64,000 bases of DNA from an uncultured Anaerolinea sp. (GTDB lineage: Bacteria; Chloroflexota; Anaerolineae; Anaerolineales; Villigracilaceae), in contig CAYRBO010000016.1 of NCBI GenBank assembly GCA_964422545.1, positions 15,794 through 79,793 on the forward strand, in the 5' to 3' direction. This document shows, piece by piece, positions 10,641 to 38,481 of this stretch. The notes under the pieces are model-generated. The model saw only the letters and a list, made by a program, of their open reading frames with translations. It did no database searches and was not told the origin of the DNA. Position 1 is the stretch's first letter, and each line of letters starts with the position of its first letter. Position numbers and translations under genes: made by a program.

Positions 10641-10653
10641 GGTTAGAAATCTT

Positions 10654-10995
10654 TTACTTTTGCGAATCCCAATATTTTTGTTTTAGGTATTGACCTAACA
10701 CAATGACTGAGAGAATAGGAGCGTATAGAATAGCATAGAAAATCACTTTGTCATATATAGGTGAAAATGTTAGATTCTCGATCGCAACGACATAAAACAA
10801 ACCGAAACTAATCCATTGTATACTTGCAATTTGTAATAAAGCTTCTAGTGTTTCTATGTTTTTCTGTCTCATGTCAGTAAAAAATAATACCTTTACTAAT
10901 TTCTTTCTTAATTTGGCAGGGAGTTTGATGTAGGTGAAAAACCGCATAGATATTGTTAGTAAGATCCCAAAACATCCTGCTACAATCGCTATCAT
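10654..10995 (-). CDS. Small membrane protein, cognate immunity candidate for the full-length Rhs tip
   Basis: Start ATG at 10995 preceded by AAGGAGG (5-nt spacer). MIAIVAGCFGILLTISMRFF... has three to four hydrophobic helices. AT-rich. Starts 19 nt after the Rhs stop at 11015. Confidence 0.55.
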   Translation of the reverse strand: MIAIVAGCFGILLTISMRFFTYIKLPAKLRKKLVKVLFFTDMRQKNIETLEALLQIASIQWISFGLFYVVAIENLTFSPIYDKVIFYAILYAPILSVIVLGQYLKQKYWDSQK

Positions 10996-11014
10996 AGAGA
11001 TTACCTCCTTGTAT

Positions 11015-14000: not shown

Positions 14001-17000
14001 CTCAGGGTCAGGCTGCATCCGCGCGCGTCGGTTTGGCTCGTCAGGTTACCGAGCGCGTCGTAGGCGTAGGTCCATCTGCCCATATCGGGATCAGACATGG
14101 TGATTTTGCGCCCGCCAGCGTCGTAGGACAACGTTGTAATTACACCACCGCGCGCCGCCGTCAGCAGGCGGTCGAGCGGGTCGTAGGTATACGCAACGCC
14201 GGGGCCGGCCGGCGGGGTAATAGACGTGGTGCGCCCCCAAACATCGGCGATGCTGGTGGTGACGCGCCCGGCCGGGTCGGTGAGGCGGGTGACCAGGCCA
14301 TCAACGACGGTTGTAGTTTGCGCGCCGTCGGGGGTGGTAATGGTGCTGCTCTTCACGCCGCCCTGGTAAACAGTTTCGCTGGTGGTATAGGCCGGGCTCT
14401 CGCCGGGGCCGTATGGCGCGCTCTGGCGGATTTTGGTGAAGGTATCGTACAGCGTATCAACCGTGTTGAACACGTTGAACGCGCCATCTACGCCTGTGCT
14501 GCTGCCGGTTTCCTGTTTGAACTGGCGGCCCAGGCCGTCATACCGGCGGCGCACGCCGTAGTAGCGGTTGTCATCGATGCGCTGGCGGATGGTGGTGGTA
14601 AACGGCGCGCCGTTTGAGTAACTGATGGCAAGTGTCGGGTTGGCGGAATCATCCTCCGGTCGTATCAATTTGACCAGCCGCCCAAAGACATCATATTGCG
14701 CGCTGGTTATAGCCCCGTTTGGGTCGGTTTCGCTCAACGGCACGCCCAGGGCATAGTCGTAGGTCCAGGTGGCGGTTTGGTTGAGCGGGTTGGTGGTCGA
14801 GGTTGGGTAGGTACGGTAGATGGGGTCAAAAACAGTGGTGGTTGCGCGCGCGCCCACGGTGGGGTTGGCGTTCCAGGCCCCGTACCCGCTCCAGGTGGTT
14901 TCGCTGGTGCGGTTGCCCCAGGCATCATAGCCGTAAGAAACCTGGTGATAACGATTGGCGGGCTGAGCAAATTCGAGCAGCGTGCGCACCGCGGTCAATT
15001 TGCCTTGCGCGGGCTGCACGCCCACTTCCAGGTTGTCGTACAAATATTGCGTAGCTCCGAGCAATCCGCCGCCCGAATCGTAGAGATGCGTGTTTTTGGG
15101 CAGGCCAACCAGGTAAAGGCCGTTCAGGTTGGGCGGCGCATAGGCGGTCGTTTCGCGGATTTTGGTTTGCCAGGCCGAACCACTCTTCTCCTGTCGCAGG
15201 GTTTCCACCAGGTTACCGTAGGTCGATTCGTAAGAAGAAGTGGTTTTGGTGGCCTGGTAAGAATTGTCATTGGCATAGACGCGGTTTTCTTCGATAGAGA
15301 GGTAAATCCAGTTTCTCGACAGGCCTTTGTAGAAACAATCGCCAACATGGCATCCATCGACGCTTGGATACGACATATCCAGGGGGTTGACGCTGTACGT
15401 GTAAAGTGTTTGCGAGTATGTCTTGCCGCCGGAATCCTGGATGGTCACGCTGATTGGGCGGCCTTTCAGGCTGTCGCCCTGGTGATACTGGGTAATCGTC
15501 TTCAACCCGGCGGGGTTGGTTTCGGTGACTGTTGCATGGCCGCGAAATTCGCTATACTTTTCGACATAGGCCGGGCAGGGTGAGGCGGGAGGATTATATG
15601 GGTCATAATCTGGGCAGATGTTCAACAGGGTGTTGCCGTTTGGGAAAGTAACCATCTCGGCGGTGCTGTCGGTGTTGACGGTTGCTCCGGAGTAAGAATA
15701 AGTGTACGTATGAGCATTGCCCTGTCCATCGTCGATGGTTTTGCTCGTCACCCGGTAAATGGAAGTGAGCAGGCGGAATTCGAAGTAGTAGAAACGTCCA
15801 TACCCAGCGCCGGTCACATTGATTTTTGGGTCGGCTTTCGATGCATTGGCTGGTAAAACCTGGACGCTCTCATTGGCCGCGTAGTTGGTTTGCGTACCAT
15901 TGAATAATCCCAGGCTGAGGCTTGTTCCAGCATCCACGCTGCCATGTACCATGAGTTTATATGCGCCGCCGGGTCGAAACAATCCCAGGCCTGGCAGGTT
16001 GGCCTCTCTTGCCACCCCCGAAATAATCATCAGGTCAGCGCCAAGTGTATTTTCCTGGCAATATAATTGTCCGCTTTCGCGCGTCCACCCAAACAAATTA
16101 CATTCTCTCCTGGTTGGGCCAAAATATTGATAATGCGAGCGTGAGCCAGGAGAGTTGGCAGCATAATGCCACATACCGTAATTGAACTGCACCGCGCCGC
16201 CGTAGCCATTCTCTGCTCGGGTCAGGTGCATGTTGTCGCCATAGGTAAAGGTGTGCGCCGGCAGGGCCGTCGTTCCGCCCAGCCCATATTCGGTTATCTT
16301 CTTGAGGGTAGTGGTTTTGCCCCCCGCCGTCCACGAAACCCCGGGCCAGATGAGATTGGCGGGGTTCGTTTCGTATTCGAGTTGATATTTGCGGATAATC
16401 GTTTCGAATACGCCGTCGCCGTCCGCGTCTTGTTCTACGATAATCGAGATCAAGCGCGAGCGTTGGAACTCACGAAAAGGAGCGTCCGTTATCCACTCAA
16501 CCGGATAATCGGAACGCGCCTCGCGTACGAAACGTATCCGGTAACGATTGTGGGGATAGACAATAGTGTTTAGGTATGTGGCAGTTACCGAAGGAACGAA
16601 TGGTCCATGCGCGCTGCAAACATATACTCCCTTGCTGTTCTTCTTCCAGACCCAGGTTTGGAACTCTTTGGTTTCGTCAATGTAGGAATACACCAGGGAC
16701 TTCCCATGCGCGTTCTGTACCCTGGTCAACATCCATTTGTAAGGCAAATCATATTTGCCGCAAATCTCGTCGCTCCCGCCATCCAGGTTATATTGCATCG
16801 AGACCATTTTCTCGAAGTAGTATACGTTTCCTATCTTGTCCCATACTGTCCAGGATGTATCTCCATTGTTTTGAATTTTCCAAAAATTTTCATCCGTCAG
16901 GTGATATCGGGAATCAGCGTTGCTCCAGACAATCGTGCTGCTCACCCCACTCACATTCAGCATGAAAGTATCATCGCCGGTAAAATGGCTGGTGCCGTTG

Positions 17001-18610
17001 TTGTTGCGCTCGATGGAACCTGCATCCAGCGACCAGCCCATGCCTACCCACGAAGCCTGGGTTTTGGCAATTGATTGGTCAACCACCTGGCTGTTGTAAT
17101 TGAGCAATAAACTCGGCTGCAAGCCGCCCGGTCCAGGTGGTACTTCGATGGGGTAGGAGTAGGTGGCCGCACCGGTAAAATTAGACACCTGGAAGGCATC
17201 AATGGTCGGCAGGTGATTGGCCTGCCAGTTGTTGACGCCAATATCGAAGACGGTGAAGTGATTCGAGTACCCGCGCACGACCTTGTTTTCTTTATCCACC
17301 ACCGTTGTCAGCGCATGCCAGGTATCTAACGCAGGGTCATACCAGTGCAGATATAAATCTCCTTCCAGGAGCGGGGGTATCTCGTAATCGGCGTAAGAAA
17401 CTTCGATTTCCACATCATCCTGGAACGTATCCACGCCGCGCTTGCTTTGCGCCCCGCGCGCCGTGATTTCGAAGGGACGCCCGCTCATAGAATGAGATGG
17501 CATCGATTCACGCAGGGGTTTGTGGATGAAAACTTCGACGGATTCAGAGAGTGCGCCTTCAGGGAATTCGACCCGGACCTTGTTTTTCAGCCCGGCTGCC
17601 TGCCCGCCCGCTTGATTGACGCTTACTTTCTCGAACAGGGCCAGGGAACCTTGCCAAGCCCCGCTTTCCTGCTCGCTAGTGGATGGGCTTTTTCCTGCAT
17701 TGTTCACCAGGCGGGCGTCGATGTACAGCGGCAGTTCCGCCTCATCGGAAATTTCCATCTTGAAATCGCCCTTGAGGGCAAAGGGAACTTGCAGCGTATT
17801 GTTTTCTGGGTTGTACGTACCGTTTTTGTCCGCTTGTTTGATAAAAATGCCCCGAGACAGGGAAAACTCGATTGCGTCATAGCCAGTTACACCCTCTACA
17901 ACTTTCCATCGAATAGTCGCCTGCCCGCCCGGCGTGATGAACCCCGGGTTCGATTCCAGCCAAATTTGCTGCCCCACCGGGACGGGCGTTACATCATCTT
18001 CCTTCGGGGATAGAGTGGAAGTCGGCTCAGGCTGCGGCGTTTCGGTCGGCAGCGCTTCATCCGTTGGAAAGGGAGTCGCGCTTTCGGCTGGCTCTGTTCC
18101 CGTGACCGATGTGCCGTCACCCGGTTCGCTGGTAGGCGTCGGCGTCGAAGTTTTATCGTCTTCTTGTTGCAAAAAACCGGGAGCCGCGGCAACCATTCCT
18201 GGTAATACTGCTCCCGATTGGGCAGCCGATGTTTGTTTTGCAAAAACTGTCGCAGGGGGAACAATTTGCTGGAACAGCAAAATAAACAACATGCCGCAAT
18301 TGATGAGCAGTTTAATGATAGCCTCCTGGTAACAGCAATGGTTTAGGAGCGACAATATTGAGTTAATTATCGTCAAAAAATACACATTTGGCAACGAAAT
18401 ATGGGACAGGTTGGTTGGGAAATATTTCCCAAATGTTCGTTTCTGTAAATAGCCTCTCTGCCAGCCCAGGTCTTCTCCAAAATCCAGTTTGCGTTTCCAG
18501 TCGGTTGTCAGGTAAATCCTTACAGGTGGAGCGTTTCGAGCAAAACACAATGCCGCAACGCAAATATTCCTGGGGATGGATTTTGACGCCACTCTTGCGA
18601 ACACATCCAA
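11015..18610 (-). CDS. rhs: Full-length Rhs-repeat polymorphic toxin (signal peptide, Thr/Pro linker, SpvB/Tc-like region, YD-repeat shell, RHS core with inserted DNRLRE-like domain, glycine-zipper C-terminal tip)
   Basis: 2531-aa ORF. A more plausible start is ATG at 18292 (MLFILLFQQIVPPATVFA, signal-like). Dozens of YD repeats (YxYDxxGR/NL). Core TKYYFAG...DHLGSTS...RYTAWGEVRYTWGSTPTDYTYTGQYSNVPEFGLYYYNARWYDGSLGRFAQADTIIP...PVRYNDPSGHC. Then ~260 aa rich in G/A/S/T/I/V with GxxxG-type spacing. Confidence 0.85.
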   Translation of the reverse strand: MDVFARVASKSIPRNICVAALCFARNAPPVRIYLTTDWKRKLDFGEDLGWQRGYLQKRTFGKYFPTNLSHISLPNVYFLTIINSILSLLNHCCYQEAIIKLLINCGMLFILLFQQIVPPATVFAKQTSAAQSGAVLPGMVAAAPGFLQQEDDKTSTPTPTSEPGDGTSVTGTEPAESATPFPTDEALPTETPQPEPTSTLSPKEDDVTPVPVGQQIWLESNPGFITPGGQATIRWKVVEGVTGYDAIEFSLSRGIFIKQADKNGTYNPENNTLQVPFALKGDFKMEISDEAELPLYIDARLVNNAGKSPSTSEQESGAWQGSLALFEKVSVNQAGGQAAGLKNKVRVEFPEGALSESVEVFIHKPLRESMPSHSMSGRPFEITARGAQSKRGVDTFQDDVEIEVSYADYEIPPLLEGDLYLHWYDPALDTWHALTTVVDKENKVVRGYSNHFTVFDIGVNNWQANHLPTIDAFQVSNFTGAATYSYPIEVPPGPGGLQPSLLLNYNSQVVDQSIAKTQASWVGMGWSLDAGSIERNNNGTSHFTGDDTFMLNVSGVSSTIVWSNADSRYHLTDENFWKIQNNGDTSWTVWDKIGNVYYFEKMVSMQYNLDGGSDEICGKYDLPYKWMLTRVQNAHGKSLVYSYIDETKEFQTWVWKKNSKGVYVCSAHGPFVPSVTATYLNTIVYPHNRYRIRFVREARSDYPVEWITDAPFREFQRSRLISIIVEQDADGDGVFETIIRKYQLEYETNPANLIWPGVSWTAGGKTTTLKKITEYGLGGTTALPAHTFTYGDNMHLTRAENGYGGAVQFNYGMWHYAANSPGSRSHYQYFGPTRRECNLFGWTRESGQLYCQENTLGADLMIISGVAREANLPGLGLFRPGGAYKLMVHGSVDAGTSLSLGLFNGTQTNYAANESVQVLPANASKADPKINVTGAGYGRFYYFEFRLLTSIYRVTSKTIDDGQGNAHTYTYSYSGATVNTDSTAEMVTFPNGNTLLNICPDYDPYNPPASPCPAYVEKYSEFRGHATVTETNPAGLKTITQYHQGDSLKGRPISVTIQDSGGKTYSQTLYTYSVNPLDMSYPSVDGCHVGDCFYKGLSRNWIYLSIEENRVYANDNSYQATKTTSSYESTYGNLVETLRQEKSGSAWQTKIRETTAYAPPNLNGLYLVGLPKNTHLYDSGGGLLGATQYLYDNLEVGVQPAQGKLTAVRTLLEFAQPANRYHQVSYGYDAWGNRTSETTWSGYGAWNANPTVGARATTTVFDPIYRTYPTSTTNPLNQTATWTYDYALGVPLSETDPNGAITSAQYDVFGRLVKLIRPEDDSANPTLAISYSNGAPFTTTIRQRIDDNRYYGVRRRYDGLGRQFKQETGSSTGVDGAFNVFNTVDTLYDTFTKIRQSAPYGPGESPAYTTSETVYQGGVKSSTITTPDGAQTTTVVDGLVTRLTDPAGRVTTSIADVWGRTTSITPPAGPGVAYTYDPLDRLLTAARGGVITTLSYDAGGRKITMSDPDMGRWTYAYDALGNLTSQTDARGCSLTLSYDLLNRLTSKASSGAGCGTQVNTSYTYDLGTNGKGRRTGMSDASGSSAWTYDWRGRMLTETKIISGQSFTTGWTYNSADLPVTMTYPDGEVVTNTYAPQMLLETVSGSSPYVTSTSYDSAGRMNIRAYGSGTQTDYDYFAWNQQGGRLRFIKSGTSAAPTSLQSLEYAYDAVGNIDWIRDWAAGAPQLQDFTYDALDRLTAAQATGGTSGLYNESYQYDPLTGNLAAKAGVTYTYDPNHPHAVASLSNGNTYTYDPNGNQVSRTINGQTMTLAYDAEGRLVSVTGSGMNAHFTYDGDGRRVKSVINGETTLFIGGHLEVKQGTPTPTATFTASPTATSTASPTPSPTPSATPTRTPTVTPTATVPSTFTPTPTPSPTPGGSVYTLTLQPNSANGLDAYILSADNNNYGGAGGMGIGERNDYANNFARSLLKFDLSALPANAEILSVTLSLWTDGDLASNDSTISAYRLKVPFSESQATWNNAASGAPWQSPGAAGANDRESAAIGSMQVAHNEPLGVEKQMALDPARVQEWVSGAVPNHGLLLKTEAELNDRFNFKTSDNGTTSQRPKLVITYRMPSTGFEPSQPASGGAKLAALAKPAGRMAGLSKSRPAAQAQAYTYGGTTWTKYYFAGTQRIASRTCSDTTCTDPVYYLTDHLGSTSITTNASGAKIAEMRYTAWGEVRYTWGSTPTDYTYTGQYSNVPEFGLYYYNARWYDGSLGRFAQADTIIPVDSQGVQAWDRYAGMNNNPVRYNDPSGHCVVLCTALIGALAGGVIAGVTYAITNQGNSFNGKELAVAIGVGVVAGALVGSGIGIVAAAASTSTAAAAAGATLAATNATMSAAATTASTYIGVGVATGLAAESYMFQNPGEFESAPYVGNAAIAGLTAAASSGQPLGKKMLAEGIGGAASYLAATSPDEFSLPDLGIAFAGGAFGGALDSGASTLAGEFLSPNKTIINQIQWTRWSAVQGTFTGVTTSFATQWGQSQAKKHKQELR

Positions 18611-22969: not shown

Positions 22970-23425
22970 CTACGATTGATTGGTGATTGGTGGCAGTTTT
23001 TTGACGAAATGCACCAGCCGCTCGGCTTCCTCGTATCCCAGCCGTTTGTGCGCGGCGATGCTAGTTTCATTCTCAACCCAGGTATCTGAGGCCATCTCCG
23101 TCAAGCCACGCTCACGCGCCCAGACTTCCATCGCCCGCACCAACGCGCCACCCACGCCTTGGCGGCGCAGGTCTTCGTCCACATACCAGCCTTCGATGTA
23201 GCCGACCGGCCCCGTTTCGCAGCCATCGGCATATTTACGAATGCCGCCCTCCAAGAAACCGCCGGGCCGTCCATCGGGACGAACGGCGATGAAAACCGGC
23301 GTATCGGGGGCGGCCAGCAAATCGCGCATTTCGGCTTCGTGTTCTGCAGGAGTGGCATCGGGCCATAGCGCGAGGCGCATACGCAGCCACTCACTCCAAT
23401 CCGATTGTTCCAGTCGTCGAATCAT
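22970..23425 (-). CDS. GNAT N-acetyltransferase, AAC(6')-I-like (aminoglycoside 6'-N-acetyltransferase family)
   Basis: Recalled similarity to AAC(6')-Iy/Iz: ...RLALWPD..., FLEG..V....RRQGVGGALV, EMASDT..EN..S...H..LG.EE.ER...F.K. Confidence 0.6.
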   Translation of the reverse strand: MIRRLEQSDWSEWLRMRLALWPDATPAEHEAEMRDLLAAPDTPVFIAVRPDGRPGGFLEGGIRKYADGCETGPVGYIEGWYVDEDLRRQGVGGALVRAMEVWARERGLTEMASDTWVENETSIAAHKRLGYEEAERLVHFVKKLPPITNQS

Positions 23426-23428: not shown

Positions 23429-24274
23429 TTATTTCCTTCTCATCATGAATTTTCGCGCAAAATCCCGGGCAGATTCGACGGGATTTTCGCTTTCGCCAAT
23501 CTCGCGTACGCAGGCCGAGCCGACGATGACGCCATCGGCGAGTTGGCCTACGGCGGCGGCCTGCTCGGGATCACCAATGCCAAAGCCGACGCAGACGGGG
23601 ATATCGGTATGCTGGCGCACCCGCTCAATCAGTTTGCCGAGGCCACTGGTGATGTCTTTGCGCGCCCCGGTGACGCCGGTGACACTGACGAGGTAGATGA
23701 ACCCCTGGGCCTTGCGGGCGACGATTTCCATGCGTTCGTCGGGGGTGGTGGGGGCGAGCATGGTGATGAGGGGTAATGGCCCGTCTGGTAGGGGCGTTGC
23801 ATGCAATGCCCCTACAAATTCATCCGCTTCTTCGGGCGGCAGGTCGGGGATGATGAAACCATCGGCCCCGGCTTCGGCGGCATCGCGGATGAAACGCTCC
23901 AGCCCGTAGGCTAACATCGGGTTGTAGTAACCCATCAGAATCAGAGGAATCTCCACGCCGCGGCGGCGCAGTTCGGCGACGGCAGCGAGTACGTCTTTTG
24001 TTGTGACGCCTTTTTCGAGGGCGGTTTGGGTGGCTTTCTGAATGACGGGGCCATCGGCCAGCGGGTCGGAGAAAGACAGGCCAACTTCGATCAGGTCGGC
24101 GCCGTTTTTGGCCAGGGCTTCGAGAACATCAATCGAGGTGGGGATGTCTGGATAGCCGACGGGGTAGTAAGGCATGAAGATGGGTGTGCTGCGGAAGGCG
24201 GTTTGGATGCGGTTCATAGCTGCTCCAATTGGTGATTGTTGGATTGGGTGATTTGGTGATTGAAAATCGCTCAA
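23429..24274 (-). CDS. trpA: Tryptophan synthase alpha chain
   Basis: Full-length TrpA-like sequence (..YPDIPTS..., GFGI). Last gene of the trp operon. Confidence 0.9.
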   Translation of the reverse strand: MSDFQSPNHPIQQSPIGAAMNRIQTAFRSTPIFMPYYPVGYPDIPTSIDVLEALAKNGADLIEVGLSFSDPLADGPVIQKATQTALEKGVTTKDVLAAVAELRRRGVEIPLILMGYYNPMLAYGLERFIRDAAEAGADGFIIPDLPPEEADEFVGALHATPLPDGPLPLITMLAPTTPDERMEIVARKAQGFIYLVSVTGVTGARKDITSGLGKLIERVRQHTDIPVCVGFGIGDPEQAAAVGQLADGVIVGSACVREIGESENPVESARDFARKFMMRRK

Positions 24275-25477
24275 TCACTCAATCGCCAAATCACCAAATT
24301 CTTTCATCACAGTGTTCAAGTCTTTATCACCGCGACCAGAGAGATTGACGAGGATGATTTGGTCGGGGCGCATGTGGGGAGCGCGTTTGAGCACTTCGGC
24401 AATGGCATGGGACGATTCGAGGGCCGGGATGATGCCTTCGGTGCGGCACAAGGTCTGGAAGGCGCTCAGGGCTTCTTCGTCGGTGGCGGAGGTGTAGAAG
24501 GCGCGTTCCTGGTCGCGCAGGTGGGCGTGTTCGGGGCCGATGGCGGCGTAATCGAGACCCGCCGAAACAGAATGAGTTTCAGCGATTTGGCCGTCTTCGG
24601 TTTGCAGGACAAAGGTGCGGGTTCCATGAATCACGCCCAGGCGTCCACGCAAGGGGTCGCCAAAGCGGGCAGCATGTTTGCCGGTGGCGATTCCGCTGCC
24701 GCCCGCTTCTACCCCAATCAGTTCGACATCCGCATCCTCCACAAAGCCGCTGAAAACACCGATGGCATTCGACCCGCCGCCAACACAGGCGATGACCGTA
24801 TTGGGCAGGCGGCCTACTTCTTTAAGAACCTGTTCGCGGGCTTCGCGGCCAATTACGGACTGGAATTCGCGCACGATGGTGGGGTAGGGATGCGGGCCGA
24901 GGGCCGAGCCAAGCAGGTAGTGGGTGGCGCGGACGTTGGTGACCCAGTCGCGGATGGCTTCGTTGATGGCGTCTTTGAGGGTTTGCGTACCGCTGGTAAC
25001 AGGGCGGACTTCTGCGCCAAGCAGTTTCATGCGGAAGACGTTGGGTTCCTGGCGGGCGATGTCTACCGCACCCATGTAAACGACACATTCCAGGCCGAGC
25101 AGGGCGGCGGCGGTGGCAGATGCGACTCCGTGCTGGCCTGCGCCGGTTTCGGCAACGATGCGGCCTTTGCCCATCCGTTTGGCGAGCAGGGCCTGACCGA
25201 GGGCGTTGTTGATTTTGTGCGCGCCGGTGTGGGCCAGGTCTTCACGCTTGAGGTAGATTTGCGCGCCGCCGAGCTGTTCAGAGAGCCGCCGGGCGTAGGT
25301 GAGCGGGGTGGGGCGGCCAACGAAGTCGGCCAGCAGTTTGTTGAACTCGCGCTGGAATTCGGGGTCGCGCTGTGCGGCGACAAACTCGGCTTCGAGTTCG
25401 GTTAATGCGGGCATGAGGGTTTCGGGGACGTATTGTCCGCCGTAGGGGCCGAATTTTGGGGAGAGGAGGGTGGGCAT
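24275..25477 (-). CDS. trpB: Tryptophan synthase beta chain
   Basis: [16 protein letters not shown]-lysine region [17 protein letters not shown]. Stop abuts the trpA start. Confidence 0.9.
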
Positions 25478-25514
25478 GGGATTTTTTTATTTTCGATTTT
25501 TTGATTGGGCGATT

Positions 25515-26177
25515 TTATTGGCGAACGGCCTGAACGAAGGCTTGTATTTTGGCCGGGTCTTTGACGCCGGGGGCCGATTCGACGCCGGAGGCAACGTCCA
25601 CGCCCCAGGGTTGGACGCGGGCGATGGCTTCAGCCACGTTTTCGGGGGTCAGGCCGCCTGCCAGCAGGAGCGGAATCTGTTTGGCGAGTTGGGCGGCGGC
25701 GTCCCAATCGGCGGTGACGCCTGAGCCGCCGTACAGGCCGGGGACGGAGGCATCGGCCAACAAGGCAGGGTTGGCAACGGATAGGAACGGATAAACGGAT
25801 GGCGTCAACGGATAGGAACGGATAAACGGATGGTTGTCAACGGATGAATCGGATGACAAACGAATGGCTTTGAAGGCGCGGGGGCCGAGTTCGGCCAGCA
25901 TTTCGGGGGGTTCGTCGCCGTGCAGTTGGGCCAGGTGCAATTGAGCGGTTTCCAAGATGGAACGGATTTCTGAAACGGATGAGTTGACGAAAACGCCAAC
26001 CAGGACAATTTCAGGACGTTTTTGGCGTAAAACGGATGCAATCTTGCGGCAGGTCTCCGGGGCAATGCAGCGCGGGCTTTTGGGGTAGAAATTGAAGCCG
26101 AGCATGTCCGCGCCCGCTTCGATGGCGGCGAGGGCGTCGGGGAGGGTTTTCAGGCCACAAATCTTTATCTTAGTCAT
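25515..26177 (-). CDS. trpF: Phosphoribosylanthranilate isomerase, with an in-frame tandem-repeat insertion
   Basis: Real start MTKIKICGL at 26177. The upstream part of the ORF is encoded by the GCAGAAT repeat and is not genuine. A ~30-aa insert NHPFIRSYPLTPSVYPFLSVANP is encoded by tandem AACGGAT-type repeats at 25774-25865. Confidence 0.8.
   Translation of the reverse strand: MTKIKICGLKTLPDALAAIEAGADMLGFNFYPKSPRCIAPETCRKIASVLRQKRPEIVLVGVFVNSSVSEIRSILETAQLHLAQLHGDEPPEMLAELGPRAFKAIRLSSDSSVDNHPFIRSYPLTPSVYPFLSVANPALLADASVPGLYGGSGVTADWDAAAQLAKQIPLLLAGGLTPENVAEAIARVQPWGVDVASGVESAPGVKDPAKIQAFVQAVRQ
25774..25865. repeat. Tandem 32-bp direct repeat (caacggataggaacggataaacggatgg x2 plus a partial copy) inside the trpF coding sequence
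   Basis: Directly visible tandem duplication. Translated in frame as HPFIRSYPLTPSVYPFLSV. Confidence 0.7.
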
Positions 26178-26265
26178 AGGAAAATGCAGAATGCAGAATG
26201 TAGAATGTAGAATGCAGAATGTAGAATGATGAATGCGGAGCGCAGAATATTCTGCATTCATCATT
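26178..26265. repeat. Heptamer (GCAGAAT/GTAGAAT) tandem array with an inverted partner (attctgcattcatcattctacat) forming a long hairpin, trpC-trpF intercistronic
   Basis: aatgcagaatgcagaatgtagaatgtagaatgcagaatgtagaatgatgaatgcgg...cagaatattctgcattcatcattctac. Confidence 0.7.
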
Positions 26266-27114
26266 CTACATTTGGGCTAGTTCCCTTATCTTGGCCGGAA
26301 TATCCTCCGCTGTCACCAGGGCTTCGCCGACCAGGATGGCGTCTACGCCGATTTTTTGCAGGCGGGCGACATCGGCGGCGGTGAAGATGCCAGATTCGGC
26401 GACGAGGGTGATTTCGGCGGGAATGAGGGGGCGAATCCGTTCGGTGGTTTCGAGCGAGACTTCAAATGTGGACAGGTTGCGATTGTTGATGCCGATGAGC
26501 CGGATGCCAGGGATTTTGAGGGCGCGTTCGGTTTCGGCTTCGTTGTGGACTTCGACCAGGGCGGCGAGCCCCAGGCTGAGGGCGCAGGCGTGCAAGTCGG
26601 CGAAGCGGGCGTCGTCGGGCAGGGCGGCGGCGATGAGCAGGATGGCGTCGGCGCCGTTGGCGCGGGCTTCGTAGATTTGGGAGTCGTCAATGATGAAATC
26701 TTTTCGTAAGAGCGGTAATTGGTGATTGGTAATTCGTAATTGGCGCAGGGTTTCGAGTTTGCCCTGGAAGAATTTTTCGTCGGTGAGGACGCTGATGGCG
26801 GATGCGCCGTTTTGGGTGTAGAGGTCGGCTACCTGGAGCAGGTCGAGGTGTGGGGCCAAAACCCCCTTCGAGGGGCTGGCGCGCTTGAGTTCGGCAATCA
26901 GGGCGGGGGGCTTTTCCCTCACCCCTATCCCCTCTCCCGGTGGGAGATGGGGATTTTTCCCCCTTCCCCCGTTGAGGGAAGGGCCGGAGATGAGAGCAGC
27001 GAGAAAATCGCGAGGCGCAGGGGAAGATTCTGCGGCGCGGCGCAGGGCCGGGGCGTCGAGCGCCGCGATTTCCAGGCGTTTTTGTTCGAGGATGGTTTCG
27101 AGGATGTTGGTCAA
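26266..27114 (-). CDS. trpC: Indole-3-glycerol phosphate synthase, with an in-frame palindromic mini-insertion
   Basis: IGPS motifs (LIAELKRASPSKG...). TTG start at 27114 with GGAGG 7 nt upstream. A ~25-aa insert GPSLNGGRGKNPHLPPGEGIGVREKPP is encoded by the palindromic element at 26910-26990. Confidence 0.85.
   Translation of the reverse strand: MTNILETILEQKRLEIAALDAPALRRAAESSPAPRDFLAALISGPSLNGGRGKNPHLPPGEGIGVREKPPALIAELKRASPSKGVLAPHLDLLQVADLYTQNGASAISVLTDEKFFQGKLETLRQLRITNHQLPLLRKDFIIDDSQIYEARANGADAILLIAAALPDDARFADLHACALSLGLAALVEVHNEAETERALKIPGIRLIGINNRNLSTFEVSLETTERIRPLIPAEITLVAESGIFTAADVARLQKIGVDAILVGEALVTAEDIPAKIRELAQM
26910..26990. repeat. Palindromic mini-element (CCCTCACCCC-n3-CCCCTCTCCC-n4-GGGAGAKGGGA) inserted in frame in trpC
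   Basis: Shares a ~45-bp core with 36980-37035 in priA. Both are translated in the same frame as LPxGEGxGVR. Confidence 0.6.
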
Positions 27115-27179
27115 CGGATGGCCTCCGGCGAAGCGAATAAACGGATTTTGGGAACGGATATGGAACGGATAAACGGATT
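27115..27179. repeat. AACGGAT-type repeats (AUCCGUU in the mRNA sense) filling the trpD-trpC intercistronic gap
   Basis: aataaacggattttgggaacggatatggaacggataaacggattttaagcggatgg: six copies of the ..cggat.. motif. Confidence 0.6.
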
Positions 27180-28211
27180 TTAAGCGGATGGCGAGGTGAA
27201 GGATTGGCTGAATTCGACGAGTTGGGTCATTTTGGCAAGGGCCGCGCCGCTGGCAAGGGAGTCTTCGGCTTCGGCCAGGGCGGTTTTGATGTCGCCGGTT
27301 TGGGCGGCCAGGGTGCCGGCAGCGTTGAGCAGGACGGCATCGCGGCGAGGGCCGTTCAGTTTGCCAGTGAACAAGTCACGCATCATCTGGGCTGCTTCGT
27401 CGGGAGTGCCGCCGCGCAGGTCGGCGATGGTGGCGCGCGGCAGGCCGTAGTCGGCGGGGTCGAGGTCGTAGGTGCGGACGGCGCCATCTTGCAGGTGGCT
27501 GACGCGGTTGGGGCCGAGCAGGCTGAGTTCGTCTGTCCCGCCTGCGCCGTGAATGACCAGCGCGGCATGGCTGCCGAGTTCGTTGAGAACGTGGGCAAGC
27601 GGTTCGGTGAGCGTGGGAGCGTAAACGCCCGTCAGTTGGATTTCGGCCCCGGCGGGGTTGGTGAGAGGCCCGAGGACGTTGAAGATGGTGCGCTGGCCGA
27701 TTTCCTTGCGCGGGCCAACGGCATGTTTCATAGCCGGGTGGAATTTGGGCGCGAACATGAAGCCGATGCCGATTTCGTCAATGGCCTGGCCGACCTGTTC
27801 GGGGGTCAGGTCGAGGTTGAGACCCAGGGCAGCCAGCACGTCGGCGCTGCCGCATTGGGAGGATGCGGCGCGGTTGCCGTGTTTGGCCACCCGTCGCCCG
27901 GTTCCGGCCACGACAAAGGCTACGGCGGTGGAGATATTGAAGGTGTGCGCGCCATCGCCGCCGGTGCCGACGACATCGTAAATGGGTTGGGAGCGGTCGC
28001 TGACCGGCACTTTGAGCGAAACGGCCCGCATGGCGCGGACTGAGCCGGTAATTTCTTCGACCGTTTCGCCTTTCATGCGCAGGGCGACGAGGTAGGCGCC
28101 AATTTGGGCCGGGGTGGCCTGGCCGGTCATGATGATGGTCATGGCCTGCTCGGCTTCTTCGGCGGTCAGGTCGGTGCGATTAATGACTTGGGCGATAAAG
28201 GGTTTTAACAT
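27180..28211 (-). CDS. trpD: Anthranilate phosphoribosyltransferase
   Basis: GTGGDG motif. Real start MLKPFIAQVI at 28211 with a GGAGG RBS. The ORF extension to 28265 is repeat-encoded. Confidence 0.85.
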   Translation of the reverse strand: MLKPFIAQVINRTDLTAEEAEQAMTIIMTGQATPAQIGAYLVALRMKGETVEEITGSVRAMRAVSLKVPVSDRSQPIYDVVGTGGDGAHTFNISTAVAFVVAGTGRRVAKHGNRAASSQCGSADVLAALGLNLDLTPEQVGQAIDEIGIGFMFAPKFHPAMKHAVGPRKEIGQRTIFNVLGPLTNPAGAEIQLTGVYAPTLTEPLAHVLNELGSHAALVIHGAGGTDELSLLGPNRVSHLQDGAVRTYDLDPADYGLPRATIADLRGGTPDEAAQMMRDLFTGKLNGPRRDAVLLNAAGTLAAQTGDIKTALAEAEDSLASGAALAKMTQLVEFSQSFTSPSA

Positions 28212-28228
28212 AAGGGCCTCCGGAAAAT

Positions 28229-28281
28229 TCAAAATGAAGAATGCAGAGTGCAGAATATTCTTCATTCTGAATTCTGCATTT
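28229..28281. repeat. GCAGAAT heptamer hairpin element, trpG-trpD intercistronic
   Basis: aatgaagaatgcagagtgcagaatattcttcattctgaattctgcattt. Confidence 0.65.
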
Positions 28282-28282
28282 G

Positions 28283-28846
28283 TTAAAGGTTCAGGAAGTT
28301 TTGCAAGATTTGCTTGCCGTGCTGGGTAAGAATCGATTCGGGATGGAATTGAACGCCGTAAGTTTCGGCGGTTTTATGTTTCAAGCCCATAATTTCACCT
28401 TCGGCGGTGAAAGCGGTCACTTCCAATTCGGCGGGGACGGGCGATTCGACAATCAGCGAGTGGTAGCGGGTGGCTTCAAAGGGGCTGGGGATGCCGTTGA
28501 ACAATCCCTGGCCGTAGTGGTGGACGCGCGAGGTTTTGCCATGCATCAGGCGCGGGGCGCGCGAGACTTTGCCGCCATAGATTGCGCCCAGGCATTGATG
28601 ACCCAGGCAAACGCCCAAAACAGGAATTTTGCCAGTGAAATGGCGCATGGCCTCGGCGGAGATGCCTCCATCGGCGATGGGTTCGCCAGGGCCGGGAGAA
28701 ATGACCAGGTGCGAAGGCTGGAGCGCAATCAACTCGTCGAGCGTAATCTGGTCATTGCGAAAGACGCGAATATCGGCGCCGAGTTCGCCGAAGTATTGGA
28801 CGAGGTTGTAGGTGAAGGAGTCGTAGTTATCAATGAGGATGAGCAT
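28283..28846 (-). CDS. trpG: Anthranilate synthase component II (glutamine amidotransferase)
   Basis: [18 protein letters not shown]..., catalytic Cys in GVCLGHQ, triad His in the HPES segment. Confidence 0.85.
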
Positions 28847-28861
28847 AAGGAAAACCTTTCT

Positions 28862-28936
28862 AAATGCAGAATGATGAATGATGAACGCAGAATGAAGAGC
28901 GGTTTTTATTCTGCATTCTGCATTCTAACTTCTGCA
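28862..28936. repeat. GCAGAAT heptamer hairpin element, trpE-trpG intercistronic
   Basis: aaatgcagaatgatgaatgatgaacgcagaatgaagagcggtttttattctgcattctgcattctaacttctgcatt. Confidence 0.65.
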
Positions 28937-30397
28937 TTATTTTTCTTCCGCCATTTCGACCGCTTTCAGCACGGCGCGGGCTTTGTTGAGGGTTTCTTCG
29001 TATTCTTTGGCCGGGTCAGAATCGGCGACGACTCCGGCGCCAGCCTGCACGCTGACCGTCTGGCCGTGACCGACCAGGGTGCGGATGGCGATGCAGGTAT
29101 CCATGTTGCCGTCGAAGGAGAAGTAGCCGATTGCGCCAGCGTAAGGGCCGCGCGCGTCTGGCTCAAGGTCGGCGATGATTTCCATCGCGCGGACTTTGGG
29201 CGCGCCAGAGACCGTGCCAGCCGGGAAGGTAGCCCGCACCAGGTCGAAGGCGCTCAGTTCGGGGCGCAGCGTCCCTTCGACGTGCGAGACGATGTGCATG
29301 ACGTGCGAATAACGCTCGATGGTGAAAAACTCAGGCACTTTGACCGTGCCAAATTCGCAAACGCGTCCCAAGTCGTTGCGGCCCAGGTCAACCAGCATGA
29401 TGTGTTCGGCGCGTTCTTTGGGGTCGGCCAGCAGGTCGGCGGCCAGGGCCTGGTCGGCAGCGGTATCGGCTCCGCGTGGGCGCGTCCCGGCGATGGGGCG
29501 CAGGCTGGCTTTGCGGCCTTCGAGACGGACGAAAATCTCAGGCGAAGCGCCGACGATGTAGAACGGTTCGCCATCCAGGTCGCCAAAGTCGAAAAAGTAC
29601 ATGTAGGGCGAGGGGTTCAGCCGCCGCAGAGCGCGGTAGATGTCGAACGGGTCACTGTGGGCCGGGCGCGACAGGCGCTGTGAGAGCACGACCTGGAAAA
29701 TATCACCAGCGGCGATGTGTTCCTTGCCAATCCGCACGGCCTGTTCGTACTCGGCCTGGGTTAAGTTCGAGGTCACTTCAACGGCGGCAGGCTGCGGAGC
29801 ATCCGTTCCGCGCGGTAGCGGCAAACGGGCGCGTAAACGCGCTTCAATGTCGTCTAATTTGCGGTTGGCAGCGTCCACATCCCCATCAAAGGCATAAGTG
29901 ATGAGGTTGATGGTGTGGCGGGCGTGGTCGAAGGCGATGAGGGTATCGGCCAGCAGGAAAACTGATTCGGGCAGCGTGCCGCTTTGCAGGTGCTTTTGCA
30001 GGCGCGGCTCGAAGTAGCGGATGGTTTCGTAACCCAGGTAACCCACCAGCCCGCCGATAAAGCGCGGCAGGCCTTCGGGCAGTTCGGGGGTGAAGCCGGA
30101 TAACTGGGATTGCAGGTAGTGGAGCGGGTCTTGCCCCGGGGGGATTTGGATATGCTCGATGGCGTTTGCCGAGCGGCGTTCTACGCTCTGGCCTGTAATC
30201 CGATACTCGTAGCGTGGCTCAATGCCGATGAAGGAGTAGCGGGCGATGCGCTCGCCGCCTTGAACCGATTCGAGCAGGAAGGAGGGGCCGCCGCCGCGCA
30301 CCTTGAGATAGATGCTGGCCGGAGTATCGAGGTCGCCCGGCAGACGGCGGATGATGGGGGCGAGGCTGGTGGTAGTTTGGATGAGTTCGGTGACCAT
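28937..30397 (-). CDS. trpE: Anthranilate synthase component I
   Basis: Chorismate-binding family signature (..GAIGYFSFDGNMDTCIAIRT..). AAGGA RBS and ATG at 30397. Confidence 0.9.
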   Translation of the reverse strand: MVTELIQTTTSLAPIIRRLPGDLDTPASIYLKVRGGGPSFLLESVQGGERIARYSFIGIEPRYEYRITGQSVERRSANAIEHIQIPPGQDPLHYLQSQLSGFTPELPEGLPRFIGGLVGYLGYETIRYFEPRLQKHLQSGTLPESVFLLADTLIAFDHARHTINLITYAFDGDVDAANRKLDDIEARLRARLPLPRGTDAPQPAAVEVTSNLTQAEYEQAVRIGKEHIAAGDIFQVVLSQRLSRPAHSDPFDIYRALRRLNPSPYMYFFDFGDLDGEPFYIVGASPEIFVRLEGRKASLRPIAGTRPRGADTAADQALAADLLADPKERAEHIMLVDLGRNDLGRVCEFGTVKVPEFFTIERYSHVMHIVSHVEGTLRPELSAFDLVRATFPAGTVSGAPKVRAMEIIADLEPDARGPYAGAIGYFSFDGNMDTCIAIRTLVGHGQTVSVQAGAGVVADSDPAKEYEETLNKARAVLKAVEMAEEK

Positions 30398-30700
30398 AGA
30401 TGTCCTTTCTTAAGAGAATAGTCCCCTCCGTCCGTTGGGACGAGAGGGGACTCCCGTGGTACCACCCAATTTACGCTTGCTTAAGAAAAATCCCTGTTGT
30501 GATGCAACAGGGAAAGGAGAGCCAGCGTCACTTTTTCGGGTACGGCCAGGTTTGGCTTATACCCTCACCCTGTAACGGGAGTTCCCGGATTAGGTTACTT
30601 TTTGGGTTCCGCTGCCATCCGTTTTTCCGGTTGGTATCCGTTCCCATGTTCACCCGCTCAACTCGGTGGGCCATTCGGCTTCTGCGCTTTTACCGGATTC
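30398..30700 (-). promoter_or_regulatory. Tryptophan T-box riboswitch leader with intrinsic terminator
   Basis: In the minus-strand sense: T-box consensus AAAUUGGGUGGUACCACGGG (GGGUGGNACC core), directly followed by terminator GGGAGUCCCCUC-loop-GAGGGGACU plus UAUUCUCUU. Structured upstream hairpins (CCCUGUUGCAUCACAACAGGG). Lies immediately 5' of trpE. Confidence 0.6.
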
Positions 30701-30878
30701 ACACCAGGCACCGGCTCTCTGAAAATCGCTTTGAAGCGTACTCGTCCACGTCTTCGTTTTTGGTTGTTAAGTTGGGCGTGATTATATGCCGCAAAGCAGA
30801 TTTGTCAAGACAAAAACGGCAACAAAAAGAACTGCCCCACATGGGATTATGGAGCAGTTCCAGTTGAAATGGTGAGTA

Positions 30879-35871: not shown

Positions 35872-38481
35872 TTATAGCAAACTATGGGGTTCCACTTCAA
35901 CACGCCAGCCATTCAGGCCAGCCAGGTTCGGCAACAGTGAGACCGGCTCAGGCCCGCGCAGAATGACCTGCCAGCGGAAAATGTCATTGACGCGGGCAAA
36001 AAAACAGGGCGCGGGGCCAATCAGGTCGGTCTGGGTGCGTTTTTCGGTTTCGATGAGGGCTTTCAATCTCTGGGCCAGGGCACGTGCTTCGTCTTCGGCT
36101 TTGACCGGGTCGCGGTGGCGATATTCGAGCCGGAGCAAGCGCGAAAACGGCGGGTAGCGCAGCAAGCGGCGATTCTCGATTTCCATGCGGTAAAACCCGG
36201 CATAGTCGTGTCCTGCCGCCGCTCGGATGACCGGATGCTCGGGCATGAAAGTCTGCATGACGACCTTGCCGCCACGCGCCGAACGTCCCGCCCGCCCGGC
36301 GACCTGCGTCAGCAGTTGGAAGGCGCGCTCCCCGGCAAACGGGTCGGGCAGGTTCAGGCCCACATCGGCCAGCACAATCCCGACCAGCGTCACGAGCGGC
36401 AAATCGAGCCCTTTGGCGAGCATTTGCGTCCCGACCAGGATGTCAGCCTGGTGATTGGCGAAGTGCGTGAGGATGATTTCGTGGGCGTCTTTTTCGCGGG
36501 TGGTCTCCCAATCCCAGCGCAGGACGCGCGCCGATGGAAACATGGCCGCCACATCCGTTTCCACTTTTTCGCTGCCCAGCCCATAGGCGCGAATGTTCTT
36601 CCCGCCGCAGGCCGGGCAGGTCTGCGGCATTTTCCGGGAATAGCCACAGCGGTGACAAATCAGGCGGTTAACCGAAGAACCGGAAAACTGGTGAAGATGA
36701 TGCGTCAACGGCGTTTCGCAGTGCGGGCATTTGAGGACATGCCCACAATCGCGGCAGAAAACGTAGGTGGCCGTGCCGCGCCGGTTCAGGTATAAAATCG
36801 CCTGTTCACCGCGCTCAAGCACCTCGGCAATCGATTCAGAGAGTTCGCGGCTAAAAATGCCCCGGTTGCCCGACTTGAGTTCCTCGCGCATATCGACGAT
36901 GGATATGGGAGGCAGTCCACCCTCCAGGCTATCTGTTACCCCAAGATTGGCTGCGCGCTCCTTGAGTTCCAGCAGGCGCATTCCCCCACCCCTCACCCCC
37001 GGCCCCTCTCCCAGGGGGAGAGGGGAGATAGCACGGTATCTCGTTTCGACGGGCGGGGTGGCGCTGCCCAGCACCGTTACTGCGCCGCAGATTTTCCCAT
37101 AGATTTCCGCTGCCCGGACGGCAGAGTAAAACGGCGGCTCGGACTGGTAGTAGGAACTGTCGTGACACTCATCGACCACAATCAGCCCGACATCCGGCAG
37201 GGGCGTGAACAGAGCCGAGCGCGGCCCAATGACCAGTTTGAGTAACCCGGCCCGGGCGCGCCGCCAGGTATCGTAGCGCTCGCCATCCGACAGGCGTGAA
37301 TGCACCAGCCCGACCTGGCCGGGAAAACGGTCGAGGAAGCGGCGCACGGTTTGGGGCGTGAGGGCAATCTCTGGGACAAGGACAATCACCCCCCTCCCGC
37401 GCCGAATCGACTCGGCGGCAGCCCGCAGGTAGAGTTCGGTCTTGCCAGAACCGGTGATGCCGTGCAGGAGGAAGCCGGGATTCGTTACTCGATATTCGTT
37501 AGTCGATATTGGATGTTCGATATTCGAGGTTCGAGTATTCGAATATTCGAGGGTCGAGGGTCGAGAGTCAAAGGCGTTGAGAATTTCTTGCAAAGCCGAT
37601 TCCTGCTCGCCGGTGAGAATCACGTTTCGATTCCCAACTCCCAATTCCCGGTTGCCCAATTTGCCCAGCGGGTCGCGCCAGATTTCGCTCTCGAACAGGC
37701 GAATCAGGCCGCGTTCCTCCAACTCCTGCAAATCGGCCAGGGTGCAGCCCGATTGGGCATAGACCCAGGTAACGGCCACCGCGTCTGGCTCGTGGATGAG
37801 GAAGCGCAAGGCGGCGCCGCGCCGCGCGAGCGTATCGGCGGTTTTGCCCAGGTTGGGCAATTCCGCTTCGGCAATTTCGGGCGGAACGGCCAGCTGCGCC
37901 ATGCGGACGTATTTGGGGCGCACCGAGGGCGGCGGCAGGACGGCCTGTTTGCCCAACACCCCGCGCTTGACCAGGACCTCGGCGGTTTTACGCCACTCGA
38001 CGGGGCCAAAATGCCGGTCAATTTGCCGCCCGCGCAAGGGGTTGCGCTGCACGAACAGGTCGAGCAGGCGTTTTTCGACCTTGCCATCTGCCGTAGCCGG
38101 GGCGCGCAGGAGCGTGTAGAGCGTATCGGCCTGCTGGCTCAGACCGGTCGGCAAGAACAGGTTGATAACCGCCGAAAGCGGATTCAGGGTGGCTTGGGCC
38201 AGTTGGCGGGCAAAGGCCAGCTGCGGCCCGGTCAGCACCGGCTGGGGGTCGAGGATATTCAGAACCGGTTTCGGATTCGGCACCGAGGCCGAATCCATCA
38301 AGTCGAACACCACCCCCTGAACGGTCTGCGTCCCAAACGGCACGCTGACCAACTGCCCCGGGCCGACGGCCATCCCGGTTGGCAGGACGTAATCGAATTC
38401 GCCGGAAACAGCGGGCAGGTTGACGGCAACACGGGCAAAAGCCATGCGGCCATTATACGGCGATTTTCGCCAATCATCCAA
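35872..38481 (-). CDS. priA: Primosomal protein N' (replication restart helicase PriA), with two in-frame repeat insertions
   Basis: Walker A GITGSGKTE, DECHDSSY, helicase C motifs, Cys4 zinc finger (CRDCGHVLKCPHC...CHRCG). Inserts encoded by the palindromic element at 36980-37035 and the AT-rich palindromic repeat at 37480-37570. Confidence 0.8.
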   Translation of the reverse strand: MDDWRKSPYNGRMAFARVAVNLPAVSGEFDYVLPTGMAVGPGQLVSVPFGTQTVQGVVFDLMDSASVPNPKPVLNILDPQPVLTGPQLAFARQLAQATLNPLSAVINLFLPTGLSQQADTLYTLLRAPATADGKVEKRLLDLFVQRNPLRGRQIDRHFGPVEWRKTAEVLVKRGVLGKQAVLPPPSVRPKYVRMAQLAVPPEIAEAELPNLGKTADTLARRGAALRFLIHEPDAVAVTWVYAQSGCTLADLQELEERGLIRLFESEIWRDPLGKLGNRELGVGNRNVILTGEQESALQEILNAFDSRPSTLEYSNTRTSNIEHPISTNEYRVTNPGFLLHGITGSGKTELYLRAAAESIRRGRGVIVLVPEIALTPQTVRRFLDRFPGQVGLVHSRLSDGERYDTWRRARAGLLKLVIGPRSALFTPLPDVGLIVVDECHDSSYYQSEPPFYSAVRAAEIYGKICGAVTVLGSATPPVETRYRAISPLPLGEGPGVRGGGMRLLELKERAANLGVTDSLEGGLPPISIVDMREELKSGNRGIFSRELSESIAEVLERGEQAILYLNRRGTATYVFCRDCGHVLKCPHCETPLTHHLHQFSGSSVNRLICHRCGYSRKMPQTCPACGGKNIRAYGLGSEKVETDVAAMFPSARVLRWDWETTREKDAHEIILTHFANHQADILVGTQMLAKGLDLPLVTLVGIVLADVGLNLPDPFAGERAFQLLTQVAGRAGRSARGGKVVMQTFMPEHPVIRAAAGHDYAGFYRMEIENRRLLRYPPFSRLLRLEYRHRDPVKAEDEARALAQRLKALIETEKRTQTDLIGPAPCFFARVNDIFRWQVILRGPEPVSLLPNLAGLNGWRVEVEPHSLL
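36980..37035. repeat. Palindromic mini-element (same family as 26910-26990) inserted in frame in priA
   Basis: cccccacccctcacccccggcccctctcccagggggagaggggagata, translated as SPLPLGEGPGVRGGG. Confidence 0.6.
37480..37570. repeat. AT-rich degenerate tandem repeat built on the palindrome TCGAATATTCGA, in frame in priA
   Basis: cgatattcgttagtcgatattggatgttcgatattcgaggttcgagtattcgaatattcgagggtcgagggtcgag encodes ..TRTSNIEHPISTNEYRVTN.. just upstream of the Walker A motif. Confidence 0.5.

Follow-up and report, generated by a model that had tools for sequence, protein, structure and literature searches.

The heptanucleotide repeat elements described here fill three intercistronic spacers of the tryptophan (trp) operon of an uncultured Anaerolinea sp. 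(Chloroflexota; contig CAYRBO010000016.1). They belong to a known class of bacterial 7-base repeats, which is widespread and poorly understood, and they are not a device specific to the trp operon. The source genome was covered by a 64-kb window, the whole stretch of DNA analyzed (64,000 nucleotides), with the operon on its minus strand. Judged from the sequence, the elements are probably heptanucleotide simple-sequence-repeat palindromes of the short tandemly repeated repetitive (STRR) or long simple sequence repeat (LSSR) class, which would arise through a generic repeat process at the DNA level. This reading is based on the anatomy of the elements, on insertions and deletions of whole units, on turnover at the same sites, on the number of unit types and on the presence of arrays in coding loops.

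The operon has the gene order trpEGDCFBA and spans positions 23429-30397 (Table 1). The genes were identified from their orthologues in relatives, by the Pfam families of these and by 66-97% tblastn identity to them; gene calls outside the operon come from our own heuristic. On this gene map, the three intervals in which the first-pass annotation had placed heptamer elements coincide with the trpE/trpG (E/G), trpG/trpD (G/D) and trpC/trpF (C/F) spacers. The operon starts with a perfect sigma-70 promoter and a T-box leader with a UGG specifier, and the elements lie in its intercistronic spacers.

In all three spacers, a (GAATGNN)n array stands opposite an (NNCATTC)n array. The unit consists of a conserved GAAT(G) core and two variable positions, and each locus is an imperfect palindrome with arm complementarity of 76-95%, so that the previously noted pairing of tandem arrays with inverted copies is borne out. 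The heptamer GCAGAAT occurs 24 times in the window, compared with 10.4 ± 3.2 expected, and 12 of these 24 copies lie inside the three spacers. The exact double unit GAATGNNGAAT is confined to the three spacers, in agreement with the earlier statement that the unit is absent elsewhere in the 64 kb; 14 matches with one mismatch were found outside them, which is within chance expectation. A scan of the window for periods 4-12 returned five regions with period 7, one with period 8 and none with any other period. The period-7 copy numbers given by Tandem Repeats Finder (TRF) for the arrays are 9.4, 3.4 + 3.4 and 2.4 + 4.4, and head-to-tail 7-nt arrays number nine in the window versus 0.5 in shuffled sequences.

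On the trp mRNA, the elements are thermodynamically predicted to form mismatched hairpins. The E/G transcript (-33.3 kcal/mol, z -5.46) reads from the stop codon TAA through about four units of the (U)GCAGAA type, the loop AAUAAAAACCGCUC and about four AUUCNNC-type units, with the ribosome-binding site AGAAAGG outside the hairpin. The G/D element (-24.1 kcal/mol, z -4.32) is a near-perfect palindrome in which GCAGAAU, UCAGAAU and GAAGAAU units face their mirror images; GGAGG and the trpD ATG come next. The C/F element (-30.5 kcal/mol, z -5.26) is asymmetric, with about three units on the 5′ side versus about ten AUUCUNC units on the 3′ side, and allows several pairing registers; its short 5′ arm starts within the last codon and the stop codon of trpC (AUG UAG AAUGAUGAAUGCAGAAU). 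Because of the unequal unit numbers, about 25-45 nt of CAUUCUN repeats, depending on the register, would remain unpaired directly before the ATG of trpF, at which no Shine-Dalgarno (SD) sequence is found. The RNA folding proposed as a check of the first-pass annotation was carried out, and in all three spacers the mRNA strand folded better than every shuffle. Of the 30-40-bp imperfect RNA hairpins claimed there, the hairpins stand and the length does not: the paired stems measure about 22-27 bp and are interrupted by regular internal loops, the variable positions breaking the pairing in every unit. The predicted hairpins start 0-4 nt past the stop codon and end a few nucleotides before the SD sequence. 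None of the elements contains a terminator-like site (G+C-rich stem followed by a U tract), and read-through is therefore expected. No Rfam family matched the spacers at the gathering score, the sub-threshold hits being chance matches to miRNA hairpins (E 0.2-0.45); in the whole window, only the T-box and tRNAs reached the gathering score.

Two open reading frames (ORFs), 25515-26264 and 27180-28265, begin inside elements. The resulting N-terminal extensions of TrpF and TrpD had been suspected to be spurious, and they are: the N-termini MTKIKICG and MLKPFIA are conserved in relatives with differing upstream spacers, which fixes the true starts at 26177 (trpF) and 28211 (trpD), the latter additionally by its GGAGG site. 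An assembly artefact is an unlikely origin of the elements, since the independently assembled L001 matches the window with 100% identity over 5167 nt, a stretch that takes in two of the elements, and orthologues are known from other samples.

The elements are not the only arrays of their kind in the window. Several unit families are present (ATCCGTT, GTGATTG, CAGTNNN and TCGANNN besides GAATGNN), each with a core of 4-5 nt and two or three variable positions, in spacers between genes on the same strand and also in frame in trpF and priA. Of the 22 same-strand spacers that measure 40 nt or more, 8 contain an array, versus 0 of 8 divergent or convergent ones. Within the operon, the B/A spacer carries a further hairpin (-27.7 kcal/mol, z -3.36), the 5′ arm of which codes for the last residues of TrpB, a C-terminus that varies among relatives. 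The D/C spacer consists of direct AUCCGUU repeats and has no predicted hairpin (-6.7 kcal/mol, z +1.5), and the 37-nt F/B spacer contains AAUC-type quasi-repeats but, despite these, no structure. The AUCCGUU unit is also found in the D/C spacer of the relative L002 and, in a far longer array, in that of L010, and one insert of the T-box leader holds two AACGGAU motifs, the complement of ATCCGTT. All five trp spacers of at least 40 nt bear arrays versus 3 of 17 other same-strand spacers (Fisher test, about 0.002), and arrays of one unit family cluster along the window (p about 0.001 by label permutation, with arrays assigned to families by eye). The trp operon is therefore a local hot spot, which is the part of the earlier claim of operon-specific recruitment that holds. 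The density of arrays fits short-range spread better than recruitment for a function in tryptophan synthesis.

The history of the elements was traced in the trp operons of seven further contigs with TrpD identities of 86-93%; a metagenome scan with TrpG yielded about five close relatives among 80 loci, so the comparative set is small. The E/G element is inherited. It is orthologous in L002/L005/L006, L008, L009 and L011, which have the flanks, loop and SD sequence in common and differ by 7- and 14-nt insertions or deletions, that is, by whole units; in two lineages a second heptamer family is nested in the loop. In the G/D spacer, the GCAGAAT palindrome is also present in L009 and L011, and the same site in L002/L005/L006/L008 is occupied by an unrelated TCGATAT/ATATCGA heptamer hairpin. 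The C/F element is found only in the window, the relatives having 13-54 nt at this position and two of them small G+C hairpins. L010 has no element in the E/G, G/D or C/F spacer, and in other relatives trpG and trpD are fused, which leaves no G/D spacer. Gain, replacement and absence all occur within this one clade. The SD sequences next to the elements are invariant. The distribution of the spacer elements is discordant with TrpD similarity, L008 having the nested E/G insert of L011 and the G/D hairpin of L002; this pattern suggests recombination between lineages within the trp operon.

The most serious alternative is that the elements are intercistronic RNA hairpins selected for a function of the REP/BIME type (repetitive extragenic palindromic sequences and bacterial interspersed mosaic elements), as protection against 3′-5′ exonucleases or as RNase III sites. 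The relative amounts of TrpE, TrpG, TrpD, TrpC and TrpF would then be set from a single T-box-controlled transcript. The stability of the folds (z -4.3 to -5.5), their position right after stop codons and just before conserved SD sequences, and the expected read-through at sites without a terminator-like U tract agree with such a role, and a duplex of 22-27 bp with internal loops would be compatible with the length of an RNase III site (about 20 bp or more). Moreover, five lineages have preserved some hairpin in the E/G spacer, and the G/D spacer has one even where the unit type is another. The comparative data, however, give no sign that the structure itself is conserved. The covariation check suggested with the first-pass annotation was run on five E/G orthologues and revealed no compensatory changes, with 0 of 31 pairs changed on both sides, a result of low power. 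Pairing is retained in 81.6% of the cells of the E/G orthologue alignment versus 81.9% in shuffles. The newest element (C/F) pairs best (92-95%) and the oldest worst (72-76%), and in L002 and L009 the E/G hairpins have weakened to z about -3. For 9 of 12 elements the more stable fold belongs to the antisense RNA, with a lead of up to 14 kcal/mol over the mRNA. The mRNA mismatches are of the C·A kind and turn into G·U in the antisense RNA, and the sense strand of the spacers is poor in G. L010 dispenses with the hairpins, the relatives with fused TrpG-TrpD dispense with the G/D spacer altogether, and the D/C and F/B spacers bear repeats without being structured. With no compensation, decay with age and an antisense strand that usually folds better, selection for an mRNA hairpin is an unlikely reason for the existence of the elements.

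The distribution beyond the clade also speaks against a trp-specific element. A scan of species-representative genomes for AATGCAGAATGNNGAAT gave at least 120 loci. At least 103 of 120 sampled loci contain period-7 arrays of at least 28 nt, typically of about 4-5 units (an approximate count); chance matches would not lie in period-7 arrays. Among the matches listed, carriers belong to Anaerolineales, other Chloroflexota, Acidobacteriota, Verrucomicrobiota (including Akkermansia), Planctomycetota, Gemmatimonadota, Bacteroidales, Clostridia and Cyanobacteria. About half of 148 matches in viral contigs are true arrays as well. Stop-free frames run through the arrays of other phyla, as seen in a crude test for ORF avoidance. 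Several arrays show a 21-nt super-period (L026, L064, L075, L078 and 26183-26236 of the window).

Genes of the trp pathway were found at four or five of the 120 genome loci listed, and any of 35 other window proteins at three. At one of the listed loci, L074 from a metagenome-assembled genome of Clostridiales, a complete trp operon carries GCAGAAT arrays in three spacers (1512-1937, 3577-3690 and 4475-4679), accompanied by GTTGAAA arrays and by an inverted-repeat element of greater length (GTCATTCTGAGCG.AGCGAAGAATC). Sequences similar to this longer element recur in L014 and L110. At L100, L089 and L028, the arrays lie 1-3 kb from trp genes and are not adjacent to them. A set of 79 unrelated trp loci contains 56 period-7 arrays of many unit types, inside as well as outside the operon. 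An association of GCAGAAT with trp genes across phyla was rejected, since an array in a trp spacer at 1 of 120 listed loci is about what chance would give. From its sequence, L074 is read as a second case of local spread within an operon and not as a link to tryptophan. Thus, the suggested operon-specific recruitment is not supported: the window contains several period-7 families, and GAATGNN units build arrays and hairpins in many phyla as well as in viral contigs, nearly always at a distance from trp genes.

The palindromic arrays have a preferred arrangement. Among the 120 genome loci listed, an inverted array lies downstream at 31 and upstream at one, and in the viral contigs the partner is downstream in nine cases and upstream in none, so that GAATG-first palindromes outnumber CATTC-first ones by 40:1. 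Over all unit types, a G-rich arm comes first as a trend (15 vs 5). The GAATG-first bias is possibly translational: the purine-rich arm, with an AUG in each unit and SD-like runs, would be kept away from the next start codon whichever strand is transcribed. The (GAATGNN)n … (NNCATTC)n palindromes might instead be a distinct cross-phylum element with its own mechanism of making or maintaining them, for which a conserved protein reading the 5-nt core every 7 nt or directional strand switching would be candidates. The reasons for considering this are the core shared by Chloroflexota, Acidobacteriota, Verrucomicrobiota, Planctomycetota, Bacteroidota, Clostridia, Cyanobacteria and viral contigs, the arrangement bias, and the colonization of neighboring spacers by one unit type, both in the window and in the Clostridiales operon. 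We regard a distinct element of this kind as quite improbable.

A related proposal, to which we attach little weight, takes the arrays as periodic sites for a nucleic-acid-binding protein that recognizes the GAAUG/CAUUC core every 7 nt and exerts post-transcriptional or DNA-level control. In its favor, the core stays constant although each unit has two freely variable positions, it recurs across phyla, and the palindromes show the strong 40:1 bias in arrangement. CAUUCUN and ACUGNNN arrays stand directly before starts without an SD sequence (trpF and the gene at 47113), as described for the TAACTGA repeats (PMC4679880). Periodic protein binding has been proposed for these TAACTGA repeats of Beggiatoaceae and for heptamer repeats of Nostoc. 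No candidate protein was found, however. Many unrelated units behave alike in one genome, which would call for many proteins, and units are replaced at one and the same site. Recognition of the type known for TRAP does not fit either, with a spacing of 4 nt instead of 2-3 and most triplets base-paired.

A family resembling miniature inverted-repeat transposable elements (MITE) with a preference for insertion between genes, also raised in the first-pass annotation, is extremely improbable: several palindromic copies do lie within 2.8 kb, and the GCAGAAT arrays of L074 adjoin the longer inverted-repeat element in three trp spacers, but the elements have no defined ends, terminal inverted repeats, target-site duplications, constant length or constant internal sequence, they differ by whole units and extend into stop codons and C-terminal codons, no empty site or insertion footprint is seen in comparison with relatives, and the C/F element took the place of the ancestral spacer instead of inserting into it.

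We propose that the heptamer palindromes arise by a generic repeat process, in which replication slippage would lengthen or shorten the arrays one unit at a time and intra-strand template switching would create the inverted copies. Each unit type would then spread over short distances into neighboring spacers. Between a stop codon and the next ribosome-binding site the arrays would be tolerated, and some would persist in frame in tolerant protein loops, the filter being selection against damage to stop codons, SD sequences and start codons. Once present in the trp mRNA, the hairpins may have REP-like effects, as spacers that uncouple cistrons, as barriers to 3′ exonucleases or as targets of RNase III. 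Any such effect would be a secondary by-product and not the reason why the elements exist.

Several observations weigh against this explanation. The fold energies are far beyond those of shuffles, and the E/G hairpin persists through about 10% protein divergence, so that some benefit of the hairpin may exist. The elements respect the stop codon and the SD sequence precisely, which fits purifying selection on the neighbors and would suit a designed intercistronic module as well. Simple slippage does not predict the 40:1 excess of palindromes that have GAATG first, and the trp operon is denser in arrays than the other spacers of the window. Finally, strains that are 99.7-99.8% identical carry identical elements, which means that the arrays are not hypermutable on a short time scale and are not rapidly switching contingency loci. 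The GAATG-first arrangement, the 5-nt core in distant phyla, the short-range sharing of units and the array density in the trp operon remain odd features of these repeats.

Heptamers are the commonest long simple repeats in prokaryotes. The trp locus offers a compact natural series, in which nearly every spacer of one operon has a heptamer array and, at these sites, the relatives have gained, lost or exchanged arrays or changed their length in unit steps. It illustrates that RNA elements which look specific to one operon can be traces that a generic repeat process has left locally. Gene callers are also misled by the repeats, which add false extensions at N-termini, alter C-termini and insert loops in frame. 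Both the bias in arrangement and the spread over short distances can be used as handles to set slippage and strand-switching models against protein-binding models.

Table 1. Features of the trp operon region (positions in the 64-kb window).
Feature	Position	Strand	Details
Consensus sigma-70 promoter, TTGACA-16-TATAAT	30781-30808	minus	12/12 consensus matches; 5′ of the T-box
T-box leader, specifier UGG (Trp)	30433-30763	minus	Rfam RF00230, 97.2 bits, E 3e-22
trpE	28937-30397	minus	
trpE/trpG spacer element	28847-28936	minus	90 nt; arms 28863-28896 + 28905-28938, 34 nt, 76% complementary
trpG	28283-28846	minus	
trpG/trpD spacer element	28212-28282	minus	71 nt; palindrome 28232-28281, 28-nt arms, 86%
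trpD	27180-28211	minus	
trpD/trpC spacer, direct AUCCGUU repeats, then GGAGG and TTG start	27115-27179	minus	sequence
trpC	26266-27114	minus	
trpC/trpF spacer element	26178-26265	minus	88 nt; arms 26197-26239 + 26249-26272, 22-24 nt, 92-95%
trpF	25515-26177	minus	
ATCCGTT-unit array in the trpF coding sequence, in frame	25769-25845	minus	TRF period 31/18/10, sequence, TrpF alignment
trpB	24275-25477	minus	
trpB/trpA spacer hairpin, unit GNGUGAUU / CAAUCACC (GUGAUU/AAUCAC), period 7-8	24218-24300	minus	arms 24229-24261 + 24265-24297, 33 nt, 76%
trpA	23429-24217	minus	

Further repeats were noted in coding sequences of the window. The trpF array of Table 1, together with a second one at 25958-25985, is translated into a TrpF loop of about 35 residues that is hypervariable in every relative; in L008 this loop contains a repeated SVSIRDS motif. 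A TCGANNN array (37480-37576, minus strand) lies in frame in priA (ORF 35872-38445) and corresponds to 18 extra residues just before the Walker A motif (GITGSGKT) when compared with PriA of the relative L010. In trpC, an in-frame insert at 26885-26990 (…SGPSLNGGRGKNPHLPPGEGIGVREKPP…) is palindromic with G and C runs and of the 'GEGxGVR' type; such sequence is present in many genomes, and the length of the TrpC insert differs in every relative. At 22970-22992 and 24275-24300, heptamer or octamer units form the final codons of genes, an acetyltransferase ending in …PPITNQS and TrpB in …EFGDLAIE. The C-terminal tails of TrpB, TrpC and TrpF vary between close relatives.

CAGTNNN/ACTGNNN arrays, which have their core in common with cyanobacterial STRR and with the TAACTGA repeats, were observed at three places outside the operon. 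The first (47105-47193) reaches the ATG of an NnrU-like gene (start at 47113) that has no SD sequence, the second (52026-52106) forms a hairpin between tRNA-Met and tRNA-Gly, and the third (60664-60720) forms a hairpin after a SIMPL/DUF541 gene ending at 60668. The T-box leader is 331 nt long versus 219 positions of the model, and a second insert in it, a hairpin that resembles a terminator and has a U run (30513-30491), is located 5′ of the T-box sequence proper. In the region 1-18196, the gene of a 2393-residue RHS-repeat protein (11015-18196, minus strand) precedes five or six diverged copies of its own 3′ region, which lie at intervals of 1.6-4.2 kb; the arrangement resembles an array of orphan toxin-tip cassettes.

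Among known systems, the heptanucleotide repeats come closest. Heterocystous cyanobacteria reportedly carry the STRR heptanucleotide repeats described by Mazel in 1990. Like STRR and heptameric LSSR, the trp elements are tandem 7-nt units with few variable positions that are mostly non-coding and also found in operon spacers, with many unit types per genome and variation in unit number. The features by which STRR and simple sequence repeats are recognized were found here, namely at least three head-to-tail 7-nt copies, length changes in unit steps and a mostly non-coding location. The CAGTNNN arrays of the window contain the CAGT core of STRR1 and STRR3. The trp elements are not STRR in the strict cyanobacterial sense (CCCCAGT, TTGGTCA and CAACAGT in heterocystous cyanobacteria): their host belongs to the Anaerolineae (Chloroflexota), their unit is GAATGNN, and most arrays have an inverted partner, giving hairpins.

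The REP/BIME elements of enterobacteria are palindromes of a few tens of nucleotides that can stabilize upstream mRNA; they conform to one fixed consensus, about 35 nt long, and are associated with RAYT transposases. The trp elements are likewise imperfect extragenic palindromes located inside transcription units after stop codons; unlike REP/BIME, they are composed of a variable number of 7-nt units, and no two of the three copies agree in the number of units, their order and the loop. The TRAP sites of Bacillus trp leaders require 9-11 (G/U)AG triplets with 2-3-nt spacers in unpaired RNA. Repeated NAG triplets in the RNA of a trp operon recall these sites, but identity with them was rejected, the triplets being a mixture of CAG, UAG, AUG and AAG and the operon being under T-box control, in addition to the misfit in spacing and pairing noted above.

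According to Mrazek (2007), as cited in PMC4679880 and PMC4692102, heptamers are the most abundant long simple sequence repeats in most prokaryotic genomes and are ascribed to polymerase slippage. Slippage has been proposed as the cause of heptamer repeats, with function regarded as speculative (PMC4679880, PMC4692102, bioRxiv 10.1101/2022.06.06.494920). The TAACTGA repeats of marine Beggiatoaceae, Cyanobacteria and Bacteroidetes (PMC4679880) resemble the arrays described here in preceding SD-less starts, in occurring also within ORFs and in being patchily distributed among phyla. Their layout before start codons is also that of the CAUUCUN repeats at trpF and of the ACTGNNN array at the gene starting at 47113. 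However, the TAACTGA sets are almost all direct (one indirect in 169; PMC4679880), whereas the trp elements are palindromic and those of the E/G and G/D spacers are followed by normal SD sequences. Heptamer arrays between genes of cyanobacterial operons (pecE/pecF) and inverted pairs in Xanthomonas have been reported (PMC4692102). Studies of the G-rich GGGAATC repeats of Xanthomonas and GGGGA(C/T)T repeats of Nostoc dealt with them as formers of quadruplexes, whereas GAATGNN units would be unable to form G-quadruplexes. In other respects the trp elements are like these repeats (PMC4692102), being degenerate, intergenic heptamers, in part inverted pairs that yield stem-loops, which occupy the same spacers in related species and differ there in length and sequence.

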